In this document: positions 17,379-22,395 of the stretch, piece after piece | How positions within the stretch are numbered: position 1 is the first letter of the stretch | Layout of the letters: every line of letters begins with the position of its first letter | Virus record (IMG/VR): IMGVR_UViG_2597490260_000006 | Source: a virus | Taxonomy: Duplodnaviria > Heunggongvirae > Uroviricota > Caudoviricetes | Direction: 5' to 3' (one strand) | DNA length: 25,283 bases | Made by a program: the position numbers and the translations under genes | Notes under the pieces: model-generated | Seen by the model: only the letters and a program-made list of their open reading frames with translations | What the model was told of the DNA's origin: nothing | Database searches by the model: none

Positions 17379-17596
17379 CAGAACCTCGCCAGCCGGTACC
17401 CGGGATGCCCCCGTCGTCGTGTAATCAGAGCCGCAAGGCGGCGCTCCCACTCCTGCCGCCCCTGCCGGATCTCAGATAAGTTTTCCATGGTCATCTGCTG
17501 ACCATTAAAAGTGACGGATTTTCCGTCCAGCACTGCCATTTCAGCTTCCGTATAACGCTGAATCATGGCTTCAATATCATTCTGATTCATAACCAT
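17378..17596 (-). CDS. Head-tail joining protein, gpW-like
   Basis: 72 aa immediately after the terminase large subunit; C-terminal RRRG motif as in recalled lambda gpW (...TGMTQRRRGPAGF...). Confidence 0.6.
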   Translation of the reverse strand: MVMNQNDIEAMIQRYTEAEMAVLDGKSVTFNGQQMTMENLSEIRQGRQEWERRLAALITRRRGHPGYRLARF

Positions 17597-19689
17597 CCTC
17601 CGGAAGTCAGCCAGGGGTTAACATCGTCAGTTACTGTTTTCTTCCGTTTTTGTTTTTTAACAGGCGTGGATACCGGTTCCGGTGTGGGTGACGGTTCGGT
17701 ACTGTCCGGGACACACTCCAGCCAGGTTTCCCGGCTCGCCCACTCCGGTGCATCCGGCCAGCGGATCTTTTCGTATCCATGCAGAATGACCAGAGCCTCG
17801 GCATACACCATCAGGTCAAAAGCTTCGTTGGCACCGCGACCCGGCTTACTCCATTTCCCGTCACTGCTCCGCTCTTCATACGTCAGTTCGTCGTAAAACC
17901 AGCTCCCCAGCCAGTCAGGGAAATGCACATAGCCGGGACCTGGCGAGTCACGCCATAACGCGTTATTCACCCGGTCTTTCAGGGCATCCGTCTGAAGAAG
18001 CCAGAGCGGTACATCACCTGCGGCCTGCGCCCGTCGGCCCGTTCGTCCGGTGTTATCAGGGAATGTACGGGTGATCAGTTTTGCGCGCCGGATGCTGTCG
18101 CCCTTAAACAGGTAAATACGTTTACCAAGGCCATCACGACGGCAACGACGCCAGAATTTATAGGCATTATCAGTGACCCCGTCTTCACCGCCGGAGTCCA
18201 CCGCCATTGCCATCAGTCGCATTTGTTGAGAAGGATCGGAGGCCAGCGGCCAGCTTTTATGAAAAACATCCGTCAGCAGGACATCCCAGTCTTCCGGATA
18301 GCTGGCCGGATCAATTCGCTGGCTCTCCCCGTCGCTGTCACCGCGCAATGACTGCGTGATGTTGTAACGATCAATAATCCAGCGTTCGCCACGGCTGCCA
18401 TAGCCCGTTACCTGAACCACAAAACGGCGATGAAGTCCCGCCTGCACATCCACTGTCGCCACAAGGAAATTAACGCCATCCGGAACACTGCGGGAAGGAA
18501 CTGGCTCTGCCCGCTGCTCAAGCAATTCACTTTTTCGTTGCTCCATGCTGGCGCGGGGAAGATAAGGTAATCCCCAGTCGGTATTGATAACCGTCTTGAG
18601 TGTCTCTTCACTTCCGGTTGTCTCGTATTCCTGTTCTGCAGTAAGCAGTTTGTAAACGAGTTGCGAGAGTGTCTGATAAGCAGCTGCCGGCCCCTCCATC
18701 CAGAATGACGCAATACGTGAACGCCGGGGATCACCATAACGACTGCCATCTGCATTGATGGATTCACCATCCCGTAACCAGACCCCACGTCCGTTCAGCT
18801 CGCGTTTTTGTTCAGGCAAAATCCGTCCTGAACAGGAAGGACACTGAATATAAGCCGCCTCACTTGCCAGCACAGGATCGGCAATATCACGGAAACCAGC
18901 AACCACATCGCCGCAGGGCTGAAAATACTCACCACAGTGTGGACAGGGCCAGTACCAGCGACGGCGATCGCCACGGTTATAGAGCGACAGGATCCCCGTG
19001 GTTGGTGGAGCCTCATGCGGTGAAGTCCGTCGCCATTTCACATCCTTCACATCCCTGCCGGGGGAACTCTCCACCAGCGTCATACCACTGGACATAAATG
19101 TGGTGGTACGTTTTGAGGCAAGAGAGAAGGCATCCCCCTCACCATCAATATCTTCCGGAAAACGGTCATAATCCGTCAGCGCCACGCATTTATAATCTGA
19201 TGAAGACATGATATTGACTGACGGCCAGCCGATTTTCAGGTAGTTGCCAGCAAGGAATGTTCTGTCATAAACGTTGTTGTCATTTTTGTTCGGACTCAGG
19301 CGACTGACCACTTCCGGGCTGACGCGAAACGTTCTGGCGAGTCGTTTTTTGGAGTGTTCGCGGGCTTTTTCCTCCGTCATCTGAATGATCAGCATATCAG
19401 CAGGATCGCAAATCACGTTGTAAATCACCCAGCCGTCAATCAGGCCGATAGTCTTGCCGGTTCGTGCCGGGCCAACAAATATCACTGCGTCGTATTCACG
19501 CGAGGCCAGGCAGTTCATAGGCTCAATAACATACGGTGCCACCAGCGGATCCCACGGGACTGAGTTCCCTGCCCCCATGGGCACCCGCATATACTGAGCA
19601 ACGGCATCAGCAACCCGCATTCGTCTCGGTGCGCGAAGGATATAACCTGAATCGGTTCGTGCTGCCTTTGCGGTTTCCTGATTCAGCAT
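17587..19689 (-). CDS. Terminase large subunit (GpA-like)
   Basis: 700 aa; Walker A-like VGPARTGKT near the N-terminus; Cys pairs CPHCG...CPSC; start codon overlaps the stop of the upstream small-subunit gene. Confidence 0.85.
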   Translation of the reverse strand: MLNQETAKAARTDSGYILRAPRRMRVADAVAQYMRVPMGAGNSVPWDPLVAPYVIEPMNCLASREYDAVIFVGPARTGKTIGLIDGWVIYNVICDPADMLIIQMTEEKAREHSKKRLARTFRVSPEVVSRLSPNKNDNNVYDRTFLAGNYLKIGWPSVNIMSSSDYKCVALTDYDRFPEDIDGEGDAFSLASKRTTTFMSSGMTLVESSPGRDVKDVKWRRTSPHEAPPTTGILSLYNRGDRRRWYWPCPHCGEYFQPCGDVVAGFRDIADPVLASEAAYIQCPSCSGRILPEQKRELNGRGVWLRDGESINADGSRYGDPRRSRIASFWMEGPAAAYQTLSQLVYKLLTAEQEYETTGSEETLKTVINTDWGLPYLPRASMEQRKSELLEQRAEPVPSRSVPDGVNFLVATVDVQAGLHRRFVVQVTGYGSRGERWIIDRYNITQSLRGDSDGESQRIDPASYPEDWDVLLTDVFHKSWPLASDPSQQMRLMAMAVDSGGEDGVTDNAYKFWRRCRRDGLGKRIYLFKGDSIRRAKLITRTFPDNTGRTGRRAQAAGDVPLWLLQTDALKDRVNNALWRDSPGPGYVHFPDWLGSWFYDELTYEERSSDGKWSKPGRGANEAFDLMVYAEALVILHGYEKIRWPDAPEWASRETWLECVPDSTEPSPTPEPVSTPVKKQKRKKTVTDDVNPWLTSGGWL

Positions 19690-20180
19690 TACTCCTCCTG
19701 CTGTAATTCCTCCTCATCATCCGCACCTGCTTCGGTCACCCGCAGGGCTATCTGATCGCGCAGATCATCAATAATGGACTGAACACGGCTCACAGCGGCA
19801 GGCTGCAGGCCGCAGTCACGTTCCAGAATATCCGGTAATGTCTCCAGCACCTGCACGACCGCTTTTGCCCAGATGGCAAACTCCCGTCTGACATCACTGG
19901 CCGGAATGAGTTGTGCCGTTTCCTGTTCGAACTTAAGACGCTCACGTTCAGACTGATACCAGGCTTTGCGTTCATGTGGATCCATTTCGCCCTCAGCAAC
20001 CGGCGGTGGTAACCCCATAAATTCAGTCAGAATATCGGTCAACCGGTATAGCTTGAGTTTGTCATGTCCACCAGCGGGACGAATGTTTTTCAGTCTTGCC
20101 ACGACAGTCTGGCGGTGCAGACCAGATAAAGCCGCCAGTTGATTAATATTCAGCATCAGGTTTTTCAACTCATGATCCAT
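19689..20180 (-). CDS. Terminase small subunit (Nu1-like)
   Basis: 163 aa; N-terminal helix-turn-helix-like segment LNINQLAALSGLHRQTVVARLKN; acidic C-terminus; GGAGG upstream of the ATG; sits directly upstream of the large subunit and downstream of the candidate cos site. Confidence 0.75.
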   Translation of the reverse strand: MDHELKNLMLNINQLAALSGLHRQTVVARLKNIRPAGGHDKLKLYRLTDILTEFMGLPPPVAEGEMDPHERKAWYQSERERLKFEQETAQLIPASDVRREFAIWAKAVVQVLETLPDILERDCGLQPAAVSRVQSIIDDLRDQIALRVTEAGADDEEELQQEE

Positions 20181-20210
20181 ATTTCCTCCGGAGAGCTTTA
20201 AACATGCATC

Positions 20211-20280
20211 GTGCGAACAACTTTAAGAAAACGCGTTCGATGTCGAACAAAAAACACTCAATTCGACATGCAAAAAACAA
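20211..20280. promoter_or_regulatory. Repeated TCGAAC-containing motifs upstream of the terminase small subunit gene (candidate cosB-type binding sites)
   Basis: Within 100 bp of the Nu1-like start: CGAACAA (20214-20220), near-palindrome GTTCGA-TG-TCGAAC (20235-20248), TCGAACAAAAAAC and TTCGACATGCAAAAAAC. Function as terminase-binding sites is inference. Confidence 0.4.
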
Positions 20281-20344
20281 ATAACCATTAATAATCAATA
20301 AGATGCAAAGATGATGGTGGCCAATAAAAATGCAAAAACTAGCC

Positions 20345-20370
20345 TTTTTCCGCGACGCTCCCGCCCCGTG
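20345..20370. other. Candidate cosN (cohesive end site)
   Basis: Late-strand sequence GGGGCGGGAGCGTCGCGG resembles the recalled lambda left end GGGCGGCGACCTCGCGG (shared GGGCGG and TCGCGG flanks), about 170 bp upstream of the Nu1-like start, comparable to the lambda spacing. Confidence 0.45.
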
Positions 20371-20817
20371 GCAGGCCCCCCCACCGGGAGGACCCGTCAG
20401 CCTGACAGCCATAACGAACGTCTGATACAGCCCTTACATGAATGGCATCGGGATAATCCAGAAAGGAATAGCATCGACCCACAAGAATCTGTGTGAGTGT
20501 CCTGTTTCTTCCACCCCCGCACAGGACTGGCGAGCATGAGGGACAACCCCGCGAACCATAACCGCGCTGATGACAGGACTGGCCCGGCTTGTATTGCTTC
20601 CAGCCTTCGCTTTTGTGGCTTTTGCAATAGCCTGACGGATCTGTGGTGGTATTGCGGTAGCCGCGAACACGGCAGGTTTTTGGGGTTCGTGGGGGCATAT
20701 GTACTCCAATGAAGAAGCCACCAACATAGCCTCCTCCATTCATCGTGAAACTATTTTCATCTACCCAGTAATGAATTCTTTGAAGAGTTGTGATCAATAC
20801 AACTCGCTAATGGAGAG

Positions 20818-20841
20818 GCTTGTCTCACACGTGAGACAAGC
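20818..20841. repeat. 24-bp near-perfect palindrome (11-bp inverted repeat, 2-bp centre)
   Basis: GCTTGTCTCAC-AC-GTGAGACAAGC read directly from the sequence; about 80 bp upstream of the small plus-strand ORF. Confidence 0.9.
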
Positions 20842-20920
20842 TTCCTGTTTGATTTACTGGACAGTATAGGAGGACAGAATGCCTTCCTCACTCGAATAAC
20901 ATCAATTAAGGAGGTTCAAC

Positions 20921-21043
20921 ATGTTTCATTCCACAAGTCATCAGGCTGTAATTATGGCAGCATCAGTTTGTGCCACAGACCTTTTCCGCTTCACTTTGAG
21001 CCTGATTCATTTCTACCTGACCGGCTCGCCTCTATCTTTCTAA
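20921..21043 (+). CDS. Small ORF (40 aa) with strong ribosome-binding site, antisense to the late transcript
   Basis: AAGGAGG 7 nt upstream of the ATG; encodes MFHSTSHQAVIMAASVCATDLFRFTLSLIHFYLTGSPLSF. Below the ORF track size cutoff. No family recognised; coding status is unproven. Confidence 0.4.
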   Translation: MFHSTSHQAVIMAASVCATDLFRFTLSLIHFYLTGSPLSF

Positions 21044-21162
21044 TCCCCGATTAATCCAAATTTCACTGCCATAATGCCGACATTCTCTGCCATTGTTGGC
21101 TCCGTTTATCCGTTAAAAGGGATATCAGTTAAGTTATCCCGTGCAGGGTATAAGCCATTATC

Positions 21163-21192
21163 AAAGCCACTCTGTAGGGAGTGGCTTTTGTA
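21163..21192 (+). terminator. Plus-strand intrinsic terminator-like hairpin
   Basis: AAAGCCACU-CUGUAGGG-AGUGGCUUU followed by UG; about 120 nt downstream of the small plus-strand ORF. Confidence 0.4.
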
Positions 21193-21397
21193 ATGGCAAT
21201 AAAAAGCCCCGCGAATGCGAGGCTAAATCCTGGTATTTGTAATGACTGGCTCTTATCTCAACGCAGCCCCTTACCGCGCGCAAGATGCTCAATATCAAGC
21301 ATCAGCAATGAGATGTTTAATCTGGATTCACTCCAGAAGTGATCACCATCCTGTCTACAGAGCCAGATGTGAAGGATGATGAGTAAAATTATCGCTA

Positions 21398-21880
21398 TCA
21401 TCGAAGGCATTGCGTCCTGATGTATTCCTGAAGCGTTCTCAGTGCTGTTTGGTCGCGGATAATTCCGTCCCGGATACCGAGAACGTTTCGTCCAGCAACT
21501 GGAGAGAGTTCGACGGTGGCATCATTGCCCATGCCGGAGGCGCTGGAGGTTTCGGCTGAGGATGGCACAGGGCATTTTCCTTTGACGAACACCCGACCAC
21601 CATTATCAAGCTTGCGCCGAAGAGCATCATTTTTAGCTTTCGCATCAGCTAACTCCTTCGTGTATTTAGCATCGAGTGCATCAGCAGCACGCTGGCGCTG
21701 CTGCATGTCAGTAATGGTGGCGGTCGCCTGCTTCAGCTCACTGACTTTTTTATCACGCTGTTCTTTATAGGCGATGGCGTTATCACGGTAATGATTGACC
21801 GCCCACGACAGGCAGACGATGATGCAGATAACCAGAGCATAAATAATCGCGGCGACTCTGCTCACTGATCTATCCCCCAA
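21398..21880 (-). CDS. Rz: Rz i-spanin (inner membrane spanin subunit)
   Basis: 160 aa; N-terminal transmembrane segment ([20 protein letters not shown]) followed by a charged coiled-coil-like region; directly downstream of the endolysin gene and containing an embedded lipoprotein ORF. Confidence 0.85.
21439..21645 (-). CDS. Rz1: Rz1 o-spanin (outer membrane lipoprotein), embedded within Rz in another frame
   Basis: 68 aa; signal peptide with lipobox (LIMVVGCSS) followed by proline-rich mature sequence ([16 protein letters not shown]); entirely inside the Rz coordinates. Confidence 0.8.
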
Positions 21881-22395
21881 CAGGCTAATGCGCTTTCCTG
21901 GTCACGACGAATAACTTGCCCATAGCAGTTATTTGAACGTATGCGGCAATCGCGCCCACCATCTTTTATCCACCAACGAATCGCCTCACATGCACCCTTA
22001 CGATCACCGGCATTCAGCCGCTTATAAAACGTCGACGGGAAACACTTACCAGGGCCAATGTTATAGGGACAGAATGACGCGATACCGGCTTTCTGTGGCT
22101 CGGTCAGTGGAACTTTTATATTGCGCTCCACCCATGCCAGCGCCTTATCCCGCTCAATGGCGTTAACCTGGGCGCATTTTTCCTTCGACAGTTTCATTCC
22201 CGGAATAACAGGTTTACCGTCCACCATCGTTGCTCCCCGACAGATGGTCCATATGCCGGAGCCATCGCGGTATGCAGTGATGTGATTCCCCTCTTTTTCA
22301 TCCAGAAACTGATCGAGAATGTCAGGCGCGGGCGCACCGACGGCAATCAGTGCCAGAACAGCAGCCGACAGGCTGTATCTGATTTTTACGTTCAT
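21862..22395 (-). CDS. R: SAR endolysin (lysozyme-like, signal-arrest-release type)
   Basis: 177 aa; weakly hydrophobic Ala/Gly-rich N-terminal segment ([16 protein letters not shown]), then a lysozyme-like region ([24 protein letters not shown]); resembles the lysozymes of phage 21 and K-12 cryptic prophages as I recall them. Confidence 0.85.

Follow-up and report, generated by a model that had tools for sequence, protein, structure and literature searches.

Late transcription units of the SP6 group of lytic phages (SP6, K1-5 and K1E; Molineuxvirinae), that of the capsid gene for example, are class III-like: they share a 22-bp promoter, a G as the starting nucleotide, a stem–loop at the 5′ end of the transcript, an AAGGAGG-type ribosome-binding site and a hairpin terminator. 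The Vectrevirus coliphages are SP6-like podoviruses with their own RNA polymerase (RNAP). An analogous unit consists of the T7 phi10 promoter, the s10 leader and T-phi as used in pET vectors. Here we describe a cassette with the same layout, resembling a natural counterpart of the pET unit, in a 25,283-nucleotide stretch of DNA from the IMG/VR virus record IMGVR_UViG_2597490260_000006 (Caudoviricetes); the whole of this stretch is referred to as the window, and coordinates without another source are positions within it. The cassette differs from the SP6-group units in that it resides in a temperate lambdoid siphovirus prophage, antisense to the prophage's own late operon, and in that it encodes a peptide that the SP6-group lytic phages do not have. 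The initial annotation of the window had drawn attention to a 40-codon open reading frame (ORF) on the plus strand with an AAGGAGG motif, a palindrome upstream and a hairpin downstream, and all of these elements are indeed present, antisense to the late genes. A promoter that is located between the palindrome and the ribosome-binding site and directed into the ORF was overlooked.

Along the plus strand the cassette can be read as a hairpin, a K1-5-type promoter, a leader with a 5′ stem–loop, a Shine–Dalgarno (SD) sequence, the 40-codon ORF and a terminator hairpin, an order that would serve the single-subunit RNAP that an SP6/K1-5-group lytic phage supplies on superinfection and not the RNAP of the host. 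In the lysogen the cassette would be silent. Upon infection by a Vectrevirus-type phage the polymerase of the invader would be made and would in turn give rise to a burst of the peptide, which would either damage the cell, probably at its membrane, or block the invader; the infection would thereby be aborted and the neighbouring lysogens protected. We consider it fairly probable that this is a silent cassette that is switched on by the RNAP of the invader and whose peptide acts by aborting or excluding the infection. That the cassette is silent in a lysogen, that the invader transcribes it, that the peptide is toxic and that the outcome is defensive are what we infer from the evidence below, and it is the architecture of the cassette as read from the sequence that suggests a function in abortive infection or exclusion.

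The promoter occupies positions 20852–20873 of the plus strand (−17 to +5; ATTTACTGGACAGTATAGGAGG), with a predicted +1 at G 20869, and by sequence it is a member of the SP6/K1-5 family of single-subunit RNAP promoters, of the K1-5/K1E (Vectrevirus) type. The K1-5 genome contains 11 such sites with the consensus ATTTACTGGACACTATAGAAGG, which the promoter in the window matches in 20 out of 22 positions, the mismatches being C to G at −5 and A to G at +2. Its core, ACAGTATAG, departs from the conserved core ACACTATAG by the change at −5, and the G at +1 is in place. Only one site with three or fewer mismatches to the K1-5 consensus exists in the 25-kb window, and none was found in 100 shuffles. 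Scored with a weight matrix derived from the 11 promoters of K1-5 (which themselves range from 26.4 to 38.1 bits), the window allele reaches 27.1 bits and the next best site in the window 5.9. The commonest allele of the cassette, that of O157 and phage 813R8, is identical to the K1-5 consensus in 22 out of 22 positions (38.1 bits). In K1-5, K1E and dozens of further Vectrevirus phages, a 40-nt probe made from this allele has six to nine matches in each genome (27/28 to 29/31 bases), at sites that are the promoters of these phages. Across IMG/VR the exact K1-5 19-mer is confined to Vectrevirus genomes and the prophage cassette, and the SP6-type 19-mer follows the same exclusive pattern save for one unrelated sequence, present in two contigs. 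At the level of sequence, the identity and orientation of the promoter and its position relative to the ORF are established.

Homologues of the cassette in which the hairpin and the 3′ half of the ORF are kept occur in temperate phages of Klebsiella (Kp4864-1 and Kp4856-1), in assembled contigs that encode the protein P0018 and in gut metagenomes. The DNA between these two conserved parts does not align with its E. coli counterpart, and the place of the K1-5 promoter is taken by TAATAGTGGCGAGTATAGAA, also written as (T/C)AATAGTGGCGAGTATAGAA. PYH-2, an Autographiviridae phage of Klebsiella, has this promoter about 12 times, and some 20 related Klebsiella podoviruses have it six to eight times. 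Alleles of the type found in Shigella phage SfIV carry ATTTAGGTGACACTTTAGAAG, a single mismatch away from the consensus of the eight promoters of SP6. Amongst E. coli alleles there is variation at −12 to −10 (CTG, ATG, GGT or CTT) and also at −16, −5, −3, −2 and +2 to +5; in promoters of the T7 group the region from −12 to −10 sets the specificity for the polymerase. The sequence comparison thus shows a replacement of the promoter by host-matched promoters in the Klebsiella and SfIV-type homologues. Because one would not expect a recombination scar to give way to the promoter of lytic phages that infect another host genus, this exchange argues that the promoter is under selection, and it is the strongest argument that we have for it. 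K1-5, SP6 and Klebsiella-podovirus promoter types are all found on one kind of cassette, and we tentatively propose, at slightly less than even odds, that they represent a family of 'promoter traps', silent prophage peptide genes under promoters copied from the lytic Autographiviridae of the host, with a specificity that would be reset by swapping or mutating approximately 20 bp of promoter. In Kp4856-1 (locus L108) two promoter-like motifs stand in tandem 5′ of the small ORF, a degenerate one at 2816–2845 (TTAGTGGCGAGGATAAGAGG) and a near-perfect Klebsiella-podovirus promoter at 2890–2912.

The promoter is preceded by a hairpin at 20809–20849 of the plus strand (core stem 20815–20844 with a CACG loop, followed by TTCCTGTTTGATTT), which was flagged as terminator-like in a scan of this strand. 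The palindrome of the initial annotation, 24 bp long and near-perfect (20818–20841), is part of this structure, which has 18 pairs in plus-strand RNA and a predicted stability of −22.9 kcal/mol (z = −4.6; none of 200 shuffles as stable), compared to −18.4 kcal/mol on the minus strand. In 14 alleles 230 of the 252 hairpin cells (91.3%) are paired on the plus strand versus 198 of 252 (79%) on the minus strand, G–U pairs number 39 versus 7, and three pairs have been altered on both sides; a homologous hairpin, TTGTCCAACACGTTGGACA, precedes the promoter of the Klebsiella phages. A role of the palindrome as an operator for a protein is less likely than one as a plus-strand RNA hairpin, given these compensatory changes and the asymmetry in G–U pairs. 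Since it is located 5′ of the predicted transcription start and a T-rich tract follows it, the hairpin is read as a terminator. We infer that it would insulate the cassette and shield it against read-through, and such a shield is what a harmful gene would be expected to want in front of it.

Transcription from G 20869 would produce a 52-nt leader (20869–20920) with a stem–loop at 20870–20889 and the SD sequence AAGGAGG at 20908–20914, 6 nt 5′ of the ATG, which is read directly in the sequence. The stem–loop, which begins at +1 or +2, has predicted stabilities of −5.3 to −6.6 kcal/mol in the E. coli alleles and is predicted to be more stable in cassettes of the Klebsiella type (−10.3 and −11.5 kcal/mol), like that in the leader of the K1-5 capsid gene (−11.1 kcal/mol). 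Similarity between the leader of the cassette and the capsid leader of Vectrevirus is modest, and the resemblance is suggestive. A six-codon ORF (MPSSLE*; 20879–20899, plus strand) with its own SD-like GGAGG lies within the leader, in frame with the 40-codon ORF. In alleles that have TCA in place of its TAA stop, those of O157 and others, reading would continue through to a 54-residue form that begins with MPSSLESHQLRRFNMFHS.

The 40-codon ORF itself extends from 20921 to 21043 (stop codon TAA at 21041–21043) and encodes MFHSTSHQAVIMAASVCATDLFRFTLSLIHFYLTGSPLSF, with a variable N-terminal half and a conserved C-terminus. Relatives in IMG/VR provided 47 unique sequences, 41 after those with duplication junctions had been left out; in these 41 the ATG is invariant and the SD sequence nearly so, with AAGGAAG in two. 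All 23 distinct alleles of the ORF are 123 nt long with neither an indel nor a stop codon. Codons 20–40 contain nine synonymous and five nonsynonymous variants (25% synonymous expected; P = 0.002). The last 18 residues (RFTLSLxHYYLTGSPLSF) are conserved in phages of E. coli, Shigella and Klebsiella, and in the diverged homologues 11 of the 21 variable sites in the corresponding codons fall on codon position 3. Three Klebsiella-type homologues of 38 residues, MLKISLLSTIVNHKITFAVIYFLLSLIHFYLTGSPLSF, MHKPLIKLFLIKLLFSGFFQRFTLSLAHYYLTGYPLSF and MTKLITKYVIINFLFSKELTRFILSLTHYYLTGSPLTF, have N-terminal DNA that is unrelated, each with its own SD sequence and an ATG in frame with the conserved C-terminus, which brings the number of unrelated N-terminal sequence types with an in-frame SD and ATG to four. 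The signature of coding sequence is evident, and the small plus-strand ORF very probably codes for a protein.

What this protein is like can be described in outline. AlphaFold2 predicts one helix from residue 2 to residue 34 (pLDDT 83), and the peptide is hydrophobic, with GRAVY values between 0.45 and 1.26. Pfam, PADLOC and PHROG returned no meaningful match, and the peptide has neither a lipobox nor any similarity to Bor; a small toxin, one of the products considered initially, is plausible. A tblastn search of a phage collection with the peptide retrieved 11 records, all of temperate phages and none of a lytic phage, and a HMMER search of 1.8 billion representative proteins added one true homologue, P0018, the remaining matches being repeat proteins. 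When the GTDB species representatives were scanned for the peptide, the only match was a chance one (a Thermoguttaceae metagenome-assembled genome), which indicates that the family is narrow and belongs to phages of E. coli, Shigella and Klebsiella. Within E. coli the cassette is common: hairpin, promoter and ORF occur together in 625 of 5426 complete genomes (~11.5%), usually in one copy and mostly unannotated. The C-terminus GSPLSF-COOH (21023–21040) conforms to G-x-x-hydrophobic-x-Phe, the pattern of the C-terminal signals of outer-membrane proteins, and in the Klebsiella forms the N-terminal half, which varies, resembles a signal peptide (MHKPLIKLFLIKLLFSGFF, for example). It may be speculated that the variable half is an export or membrane-anchor signal and the peptide is exported; the invariant C-terminus (...YLTGSPLSF-COOH) may, in the same speculative vein, target the envelope machinery.

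Several observations weigh against a cassette that is triggered by an invading phage. Position −5 is a G in the window allele and a C in each of the 11 K1-5 promoters, and a search for a phage with promoters exactly like the window allele (ACAGTATAGG) found none; this copy of the promoter may be weak, or else tuned to a phage that has not been sampled. Many carriers, for example O157:H7, are neither K1 nor K5 strains, so that the phages concerned would have to come from elsewhere in the group and have other tailspikes. The hydrophobicity of the peptide is moderate, the best 19-residue Kyte–Doolittle window scoring 0.9–1.8. In codons 2–19 there are two synonymous and 24 nonsynonymous variants, and the synonymous bias of codons 20–40 does not extend to this part. 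The ratio fits diversifying selection or, equally, weak constraint; we conclude that the C-terminal part is constrained and that the N-terminal half is either fast-evolving or weakly constrained. In a few database copies the C-terminal part is frameshifted. Finally, a 3′ remnant of a gene for a LysC/Rz1-type o-spanin (20991–21082, minus strand; ...RKIEASRSGRNESGSK*) lies antisense to the ORF, opposite its 3′ half. The gene is truncated in the window and intact in SfIV (locus L001, 701–1042, annotated as o-spanin) and Kp4864-1 (locus L107, 2994–3344), and where it is intact the conservation of this half of the ORF can in part be credited to the o-spanin tail.

Amongst the alternatives, the one that fares best, although we consider it unlikely, is that the cassette is a conventional moron that is transcribed by the host polymerase in the lysogen and encodes a peptide for lysogenic conversion, a toxin resembling those of type I systems or a partner that precedes bor/iss. 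Much about the cassette is moron-like. As in the lambdoid morons bor/iss and lom, it occupies the slot between lysis genes and cos on the strand opposite to the late operon, forms an autonomous unit flanked by hairpins, and has a patchy, mosaic distribution; in every context looked at it was found in this bor-type slot, at the junction of lysis and packaging genes, and its strong SD sequence and small hydrophobic product would suit a moron too. The position equivalent to that of bor, to which the initial annotation had pointed, is borne out by O157:H7 FRIK944 and phage 813R8, in which iss/bor comes next after this segment and in the same orientation, as it does in many relatives. What defines a moron, however, is a host-type promoter that is active in the lysogen, and none can be detected in the cassette: a consensus scan found no sigma-70-like promoter 5′ of the ORF on its own strand and none on the minus strand of the region. 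This speaks against the bor-like expression in the lysogen that had been suggested. Because the only recognisable promoter of the cassette is of the phage-polymerase type, it is probably silent until infection by a phage of the K1-5/SP6 type. A leader peptide of bor, likewise proposed at the outset, is difficult to reconcile with the occurrence of the cassette without bor in the window, in SfIV and in the Klebsiella phages, and no homology to the cassette was found in the lambda bor/lambdap78 region. A moron would also leave unexplained why a phage-polymerase promoter, perfect in the commonest allele, stands at the right distance from the ORF and has been swapped for a host-matched one in Klebsiella. 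Gene callers (PGAP) almost never call the ORF, and the supplements of the Ribo-seq study of small genes in the Sakai strain did not yield the peptide, a weak negative since sequences may be missing from these files altogether.

The mosaicism of the region is pronounced, some relatives have tandem duplications and purifying selection is not seen in the N-terminal half of the ORF. All of this would be compatible with debris, in which the leftover 3′ end of the o-spanin gene, a promoter scar of recombination with an Autographiviridae phage and a chance antisense frame happen to lie side by side; the overlap with o-spanin tails that are intact in SfIV and Kp4864-1 points in the same direction. We nevertheless regard this explanation as quite improbable. 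Position 3 of the plus-strand frame corresponds to position 2 of the spanin frame, and the changes observed in the conserved block, which fall on the former, therefore alter the spanin tail and spare the peptide. The block has been retained in the window, in O157 and in loci L108 and L190, in all of which the spanin gene is broken. Moreover, an SD and an in-frame ATG are present in each of four unrelated N-terminal sequences, and a scar would not have been traded, in another host genus, for a promoter that matches the lytic phages found there. The tail of the o-spanin gene may still be where the small ORF was born, by overprinting.

Downstream of the ORF, approximately 110 nt 3′ of its stop codon, the plus strand contains a hairpin at 21154–21197 with the inner stem GCCACTC/GAGTGGC followed by TTTT (−30.1 kcal/mol, z = −8.2). 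It folds on both strands and is the probable terminator of the cassette transcript in the window. In the relatives that carry bor no hairpin between the ORF and bor was apparent by eye (the terminator scan was not used there), and transcription may run on into bor. A functional promoter whose RNA, or whose transcription as such, is the active product, by acting antisense to o-spanin or late transcripts, by reading into bor/iss or by interfering with or priming replication, is highly improbable: the transcript would be antisense to the 3′ end of the o-spanin gene in SfIV and Kp4864-1, and the apparent lack of a hairpin before bor would suit such a role, but the near-invariant SD sequence, the conserved frame and the synonymous bias point to translation, the strong terminator of the window stands after the ORF and before any late gene, and the late genes of the prophage are off in the lysogen, which would leave an antisense RNA without a target. 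Beyond this hairpin, a minus-strand ORF of 50 codons follows Rz (21258–21410; a hypothetical protein in the identical locus of E. coli KGu016) and has a good intrinsic terminator of that strand after it, at 21205–21224, so that this terminator and the hairpin at 21154–21197 form a back-to-back pair.

The surroundings of the cassette are those of a lambdoid prophage late region in which the large genes, including those for the tail, are all on the minus strand. It is placed in a 1.2-kb gap between the terminase genes, TerL (large terminase; 17587–19689) and a Nu1-like small terminase (19689–20180), and the lysis genes Rz (21398–21880) and endolysin (21862–22395), antisense to this late operon. 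The gap is itself a mosaic: 20180–20566 and 21105–21400 are common to phage PhiR47_1, which has the same flanks as the window and lacks the insert at 20567–21104, whereas a module that extends over 20552–21082 and contains the hairpin, the promoter and the ORF is shared with Shigella phage SfIV, coliphage 813R8 and O157:H7 prophages and is missing from PhiR47_1. The breakpoints fall at 20552–20566 and 21082–21105, and resemblance to SfIV and O157 stops at 21082. The downstream terminator consequently sits in the PhiR47_1-type module (21105–21400) and not in that of the ORF, and the compact unit of the initial annotation, though all its elements are in place, is in this respect a composite. In O157 and 813R8 the module fills the space that separates an HNH endonuclease gene of the minus strand from bor/iss on the plus strand, and in SfIV it leads from the HNH gene straight to the lysis genes without bor.

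The window retains a 5′ remnant of this HNH gene (20549–20698, minus strand), which PGAP designates a partial HNH pseudogene in the identical KGu016 locus; the gene is intact in SfIV, 813R8 and O157. In relatives of the HK97/P27 type it lies next to the cassette and is oriented away from it. The usual partners of HNH are terminases of the HK97/P27 type, and here the remnant adjoins a terminase of the lambda Nu1/A type (19689–20180), which makes this site a recombination joint between two types of packaging module. Six IMG/VR loci (L032, L035, L041, L044, L074 and L105) contain a tandem duplication of 287 bp that comprises the 5′ end of HNH, the hairpin, the promoter and a degenerate SD sequence; its junction is located exactly at the start codon of the small ORF, which results in two phage-type promoters, the first of them without an ORF. 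An Rfam scan of the whole window found no family, and a run of ten Ns at 415–424, in the tail-gene end of the window, marks an assembly gap. No gene for a matching polymerase was seen in the prophage stretches examined, and SfIV, whose record is annotated in full, is not known to contain one.

If the proposed trigger is correct, it would represent a sensing principle that is new to natural bacterial or prophage immunity, since the prophage would offer the invader a promoter instead of recognising a phage protein or nucleic acid; confirmation would establish a protective prophage module with an unprecedented trigger. It would also explain why a conserved and unannotated element is present in about one in nine complete E. 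coli genomes, O157:H7 prophages included, and would predict which lysogens block which therapeutic podophages, K1-5, K1E and their relatives on the one hand and the Autographiviridae of Klebsiella on the other. A simple rule for the discovery of further traps follows, which is to search prophages for orphan promoters of phage polymerases. Our literature search found no description of a natural prophage cassette triggered by a phage polymerase.

The toxins of type I toxin–antitoxin systems (hok/sok, ldr, tisB, ibs and zor) are likewise hydrophobic peptides of approximately 40 residues with a single predicted helix, and their expression must stay off. The cassette differs from them in that no antisense RNA gene, sigma-70 promoter or family similarity is detectable, and its control would reside in the specificity of the promoter and not in an antitoxin RNA. 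Abortive-infection systems that are triggered by phages, such as AbiD1 (which is activated by a phage protein), Lit, PrrC and PifA, follow the same logic of a lethal or blocking function that is silent until the trigger of the invader arrives. Their natural triggers act on proteins or translation, whereas that of the cassette would be the RNAP of the invader acting on a captured promoter. Djordjevic and colleagues reportedly engineered a 'triggered suicide' cassette with a phage promoter in 1997; to our knowledge such wiring has been described for an engineered system only, with no known natural bacterial example. The logic also has a eukaryotic precedent. In 2016 Fischer and Hackl are said to have described mavirus integrated in Cafeteria, with genes that have the late promoters of a giant virus (CroV). 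There, too, an integrated element is silent until the transcription machinery of a superinfecting virus becomes available and protection is afforded at the level of the population, but it is a whole virophage genome that is reactivated, unrelated to the single-peptide cassette described here.

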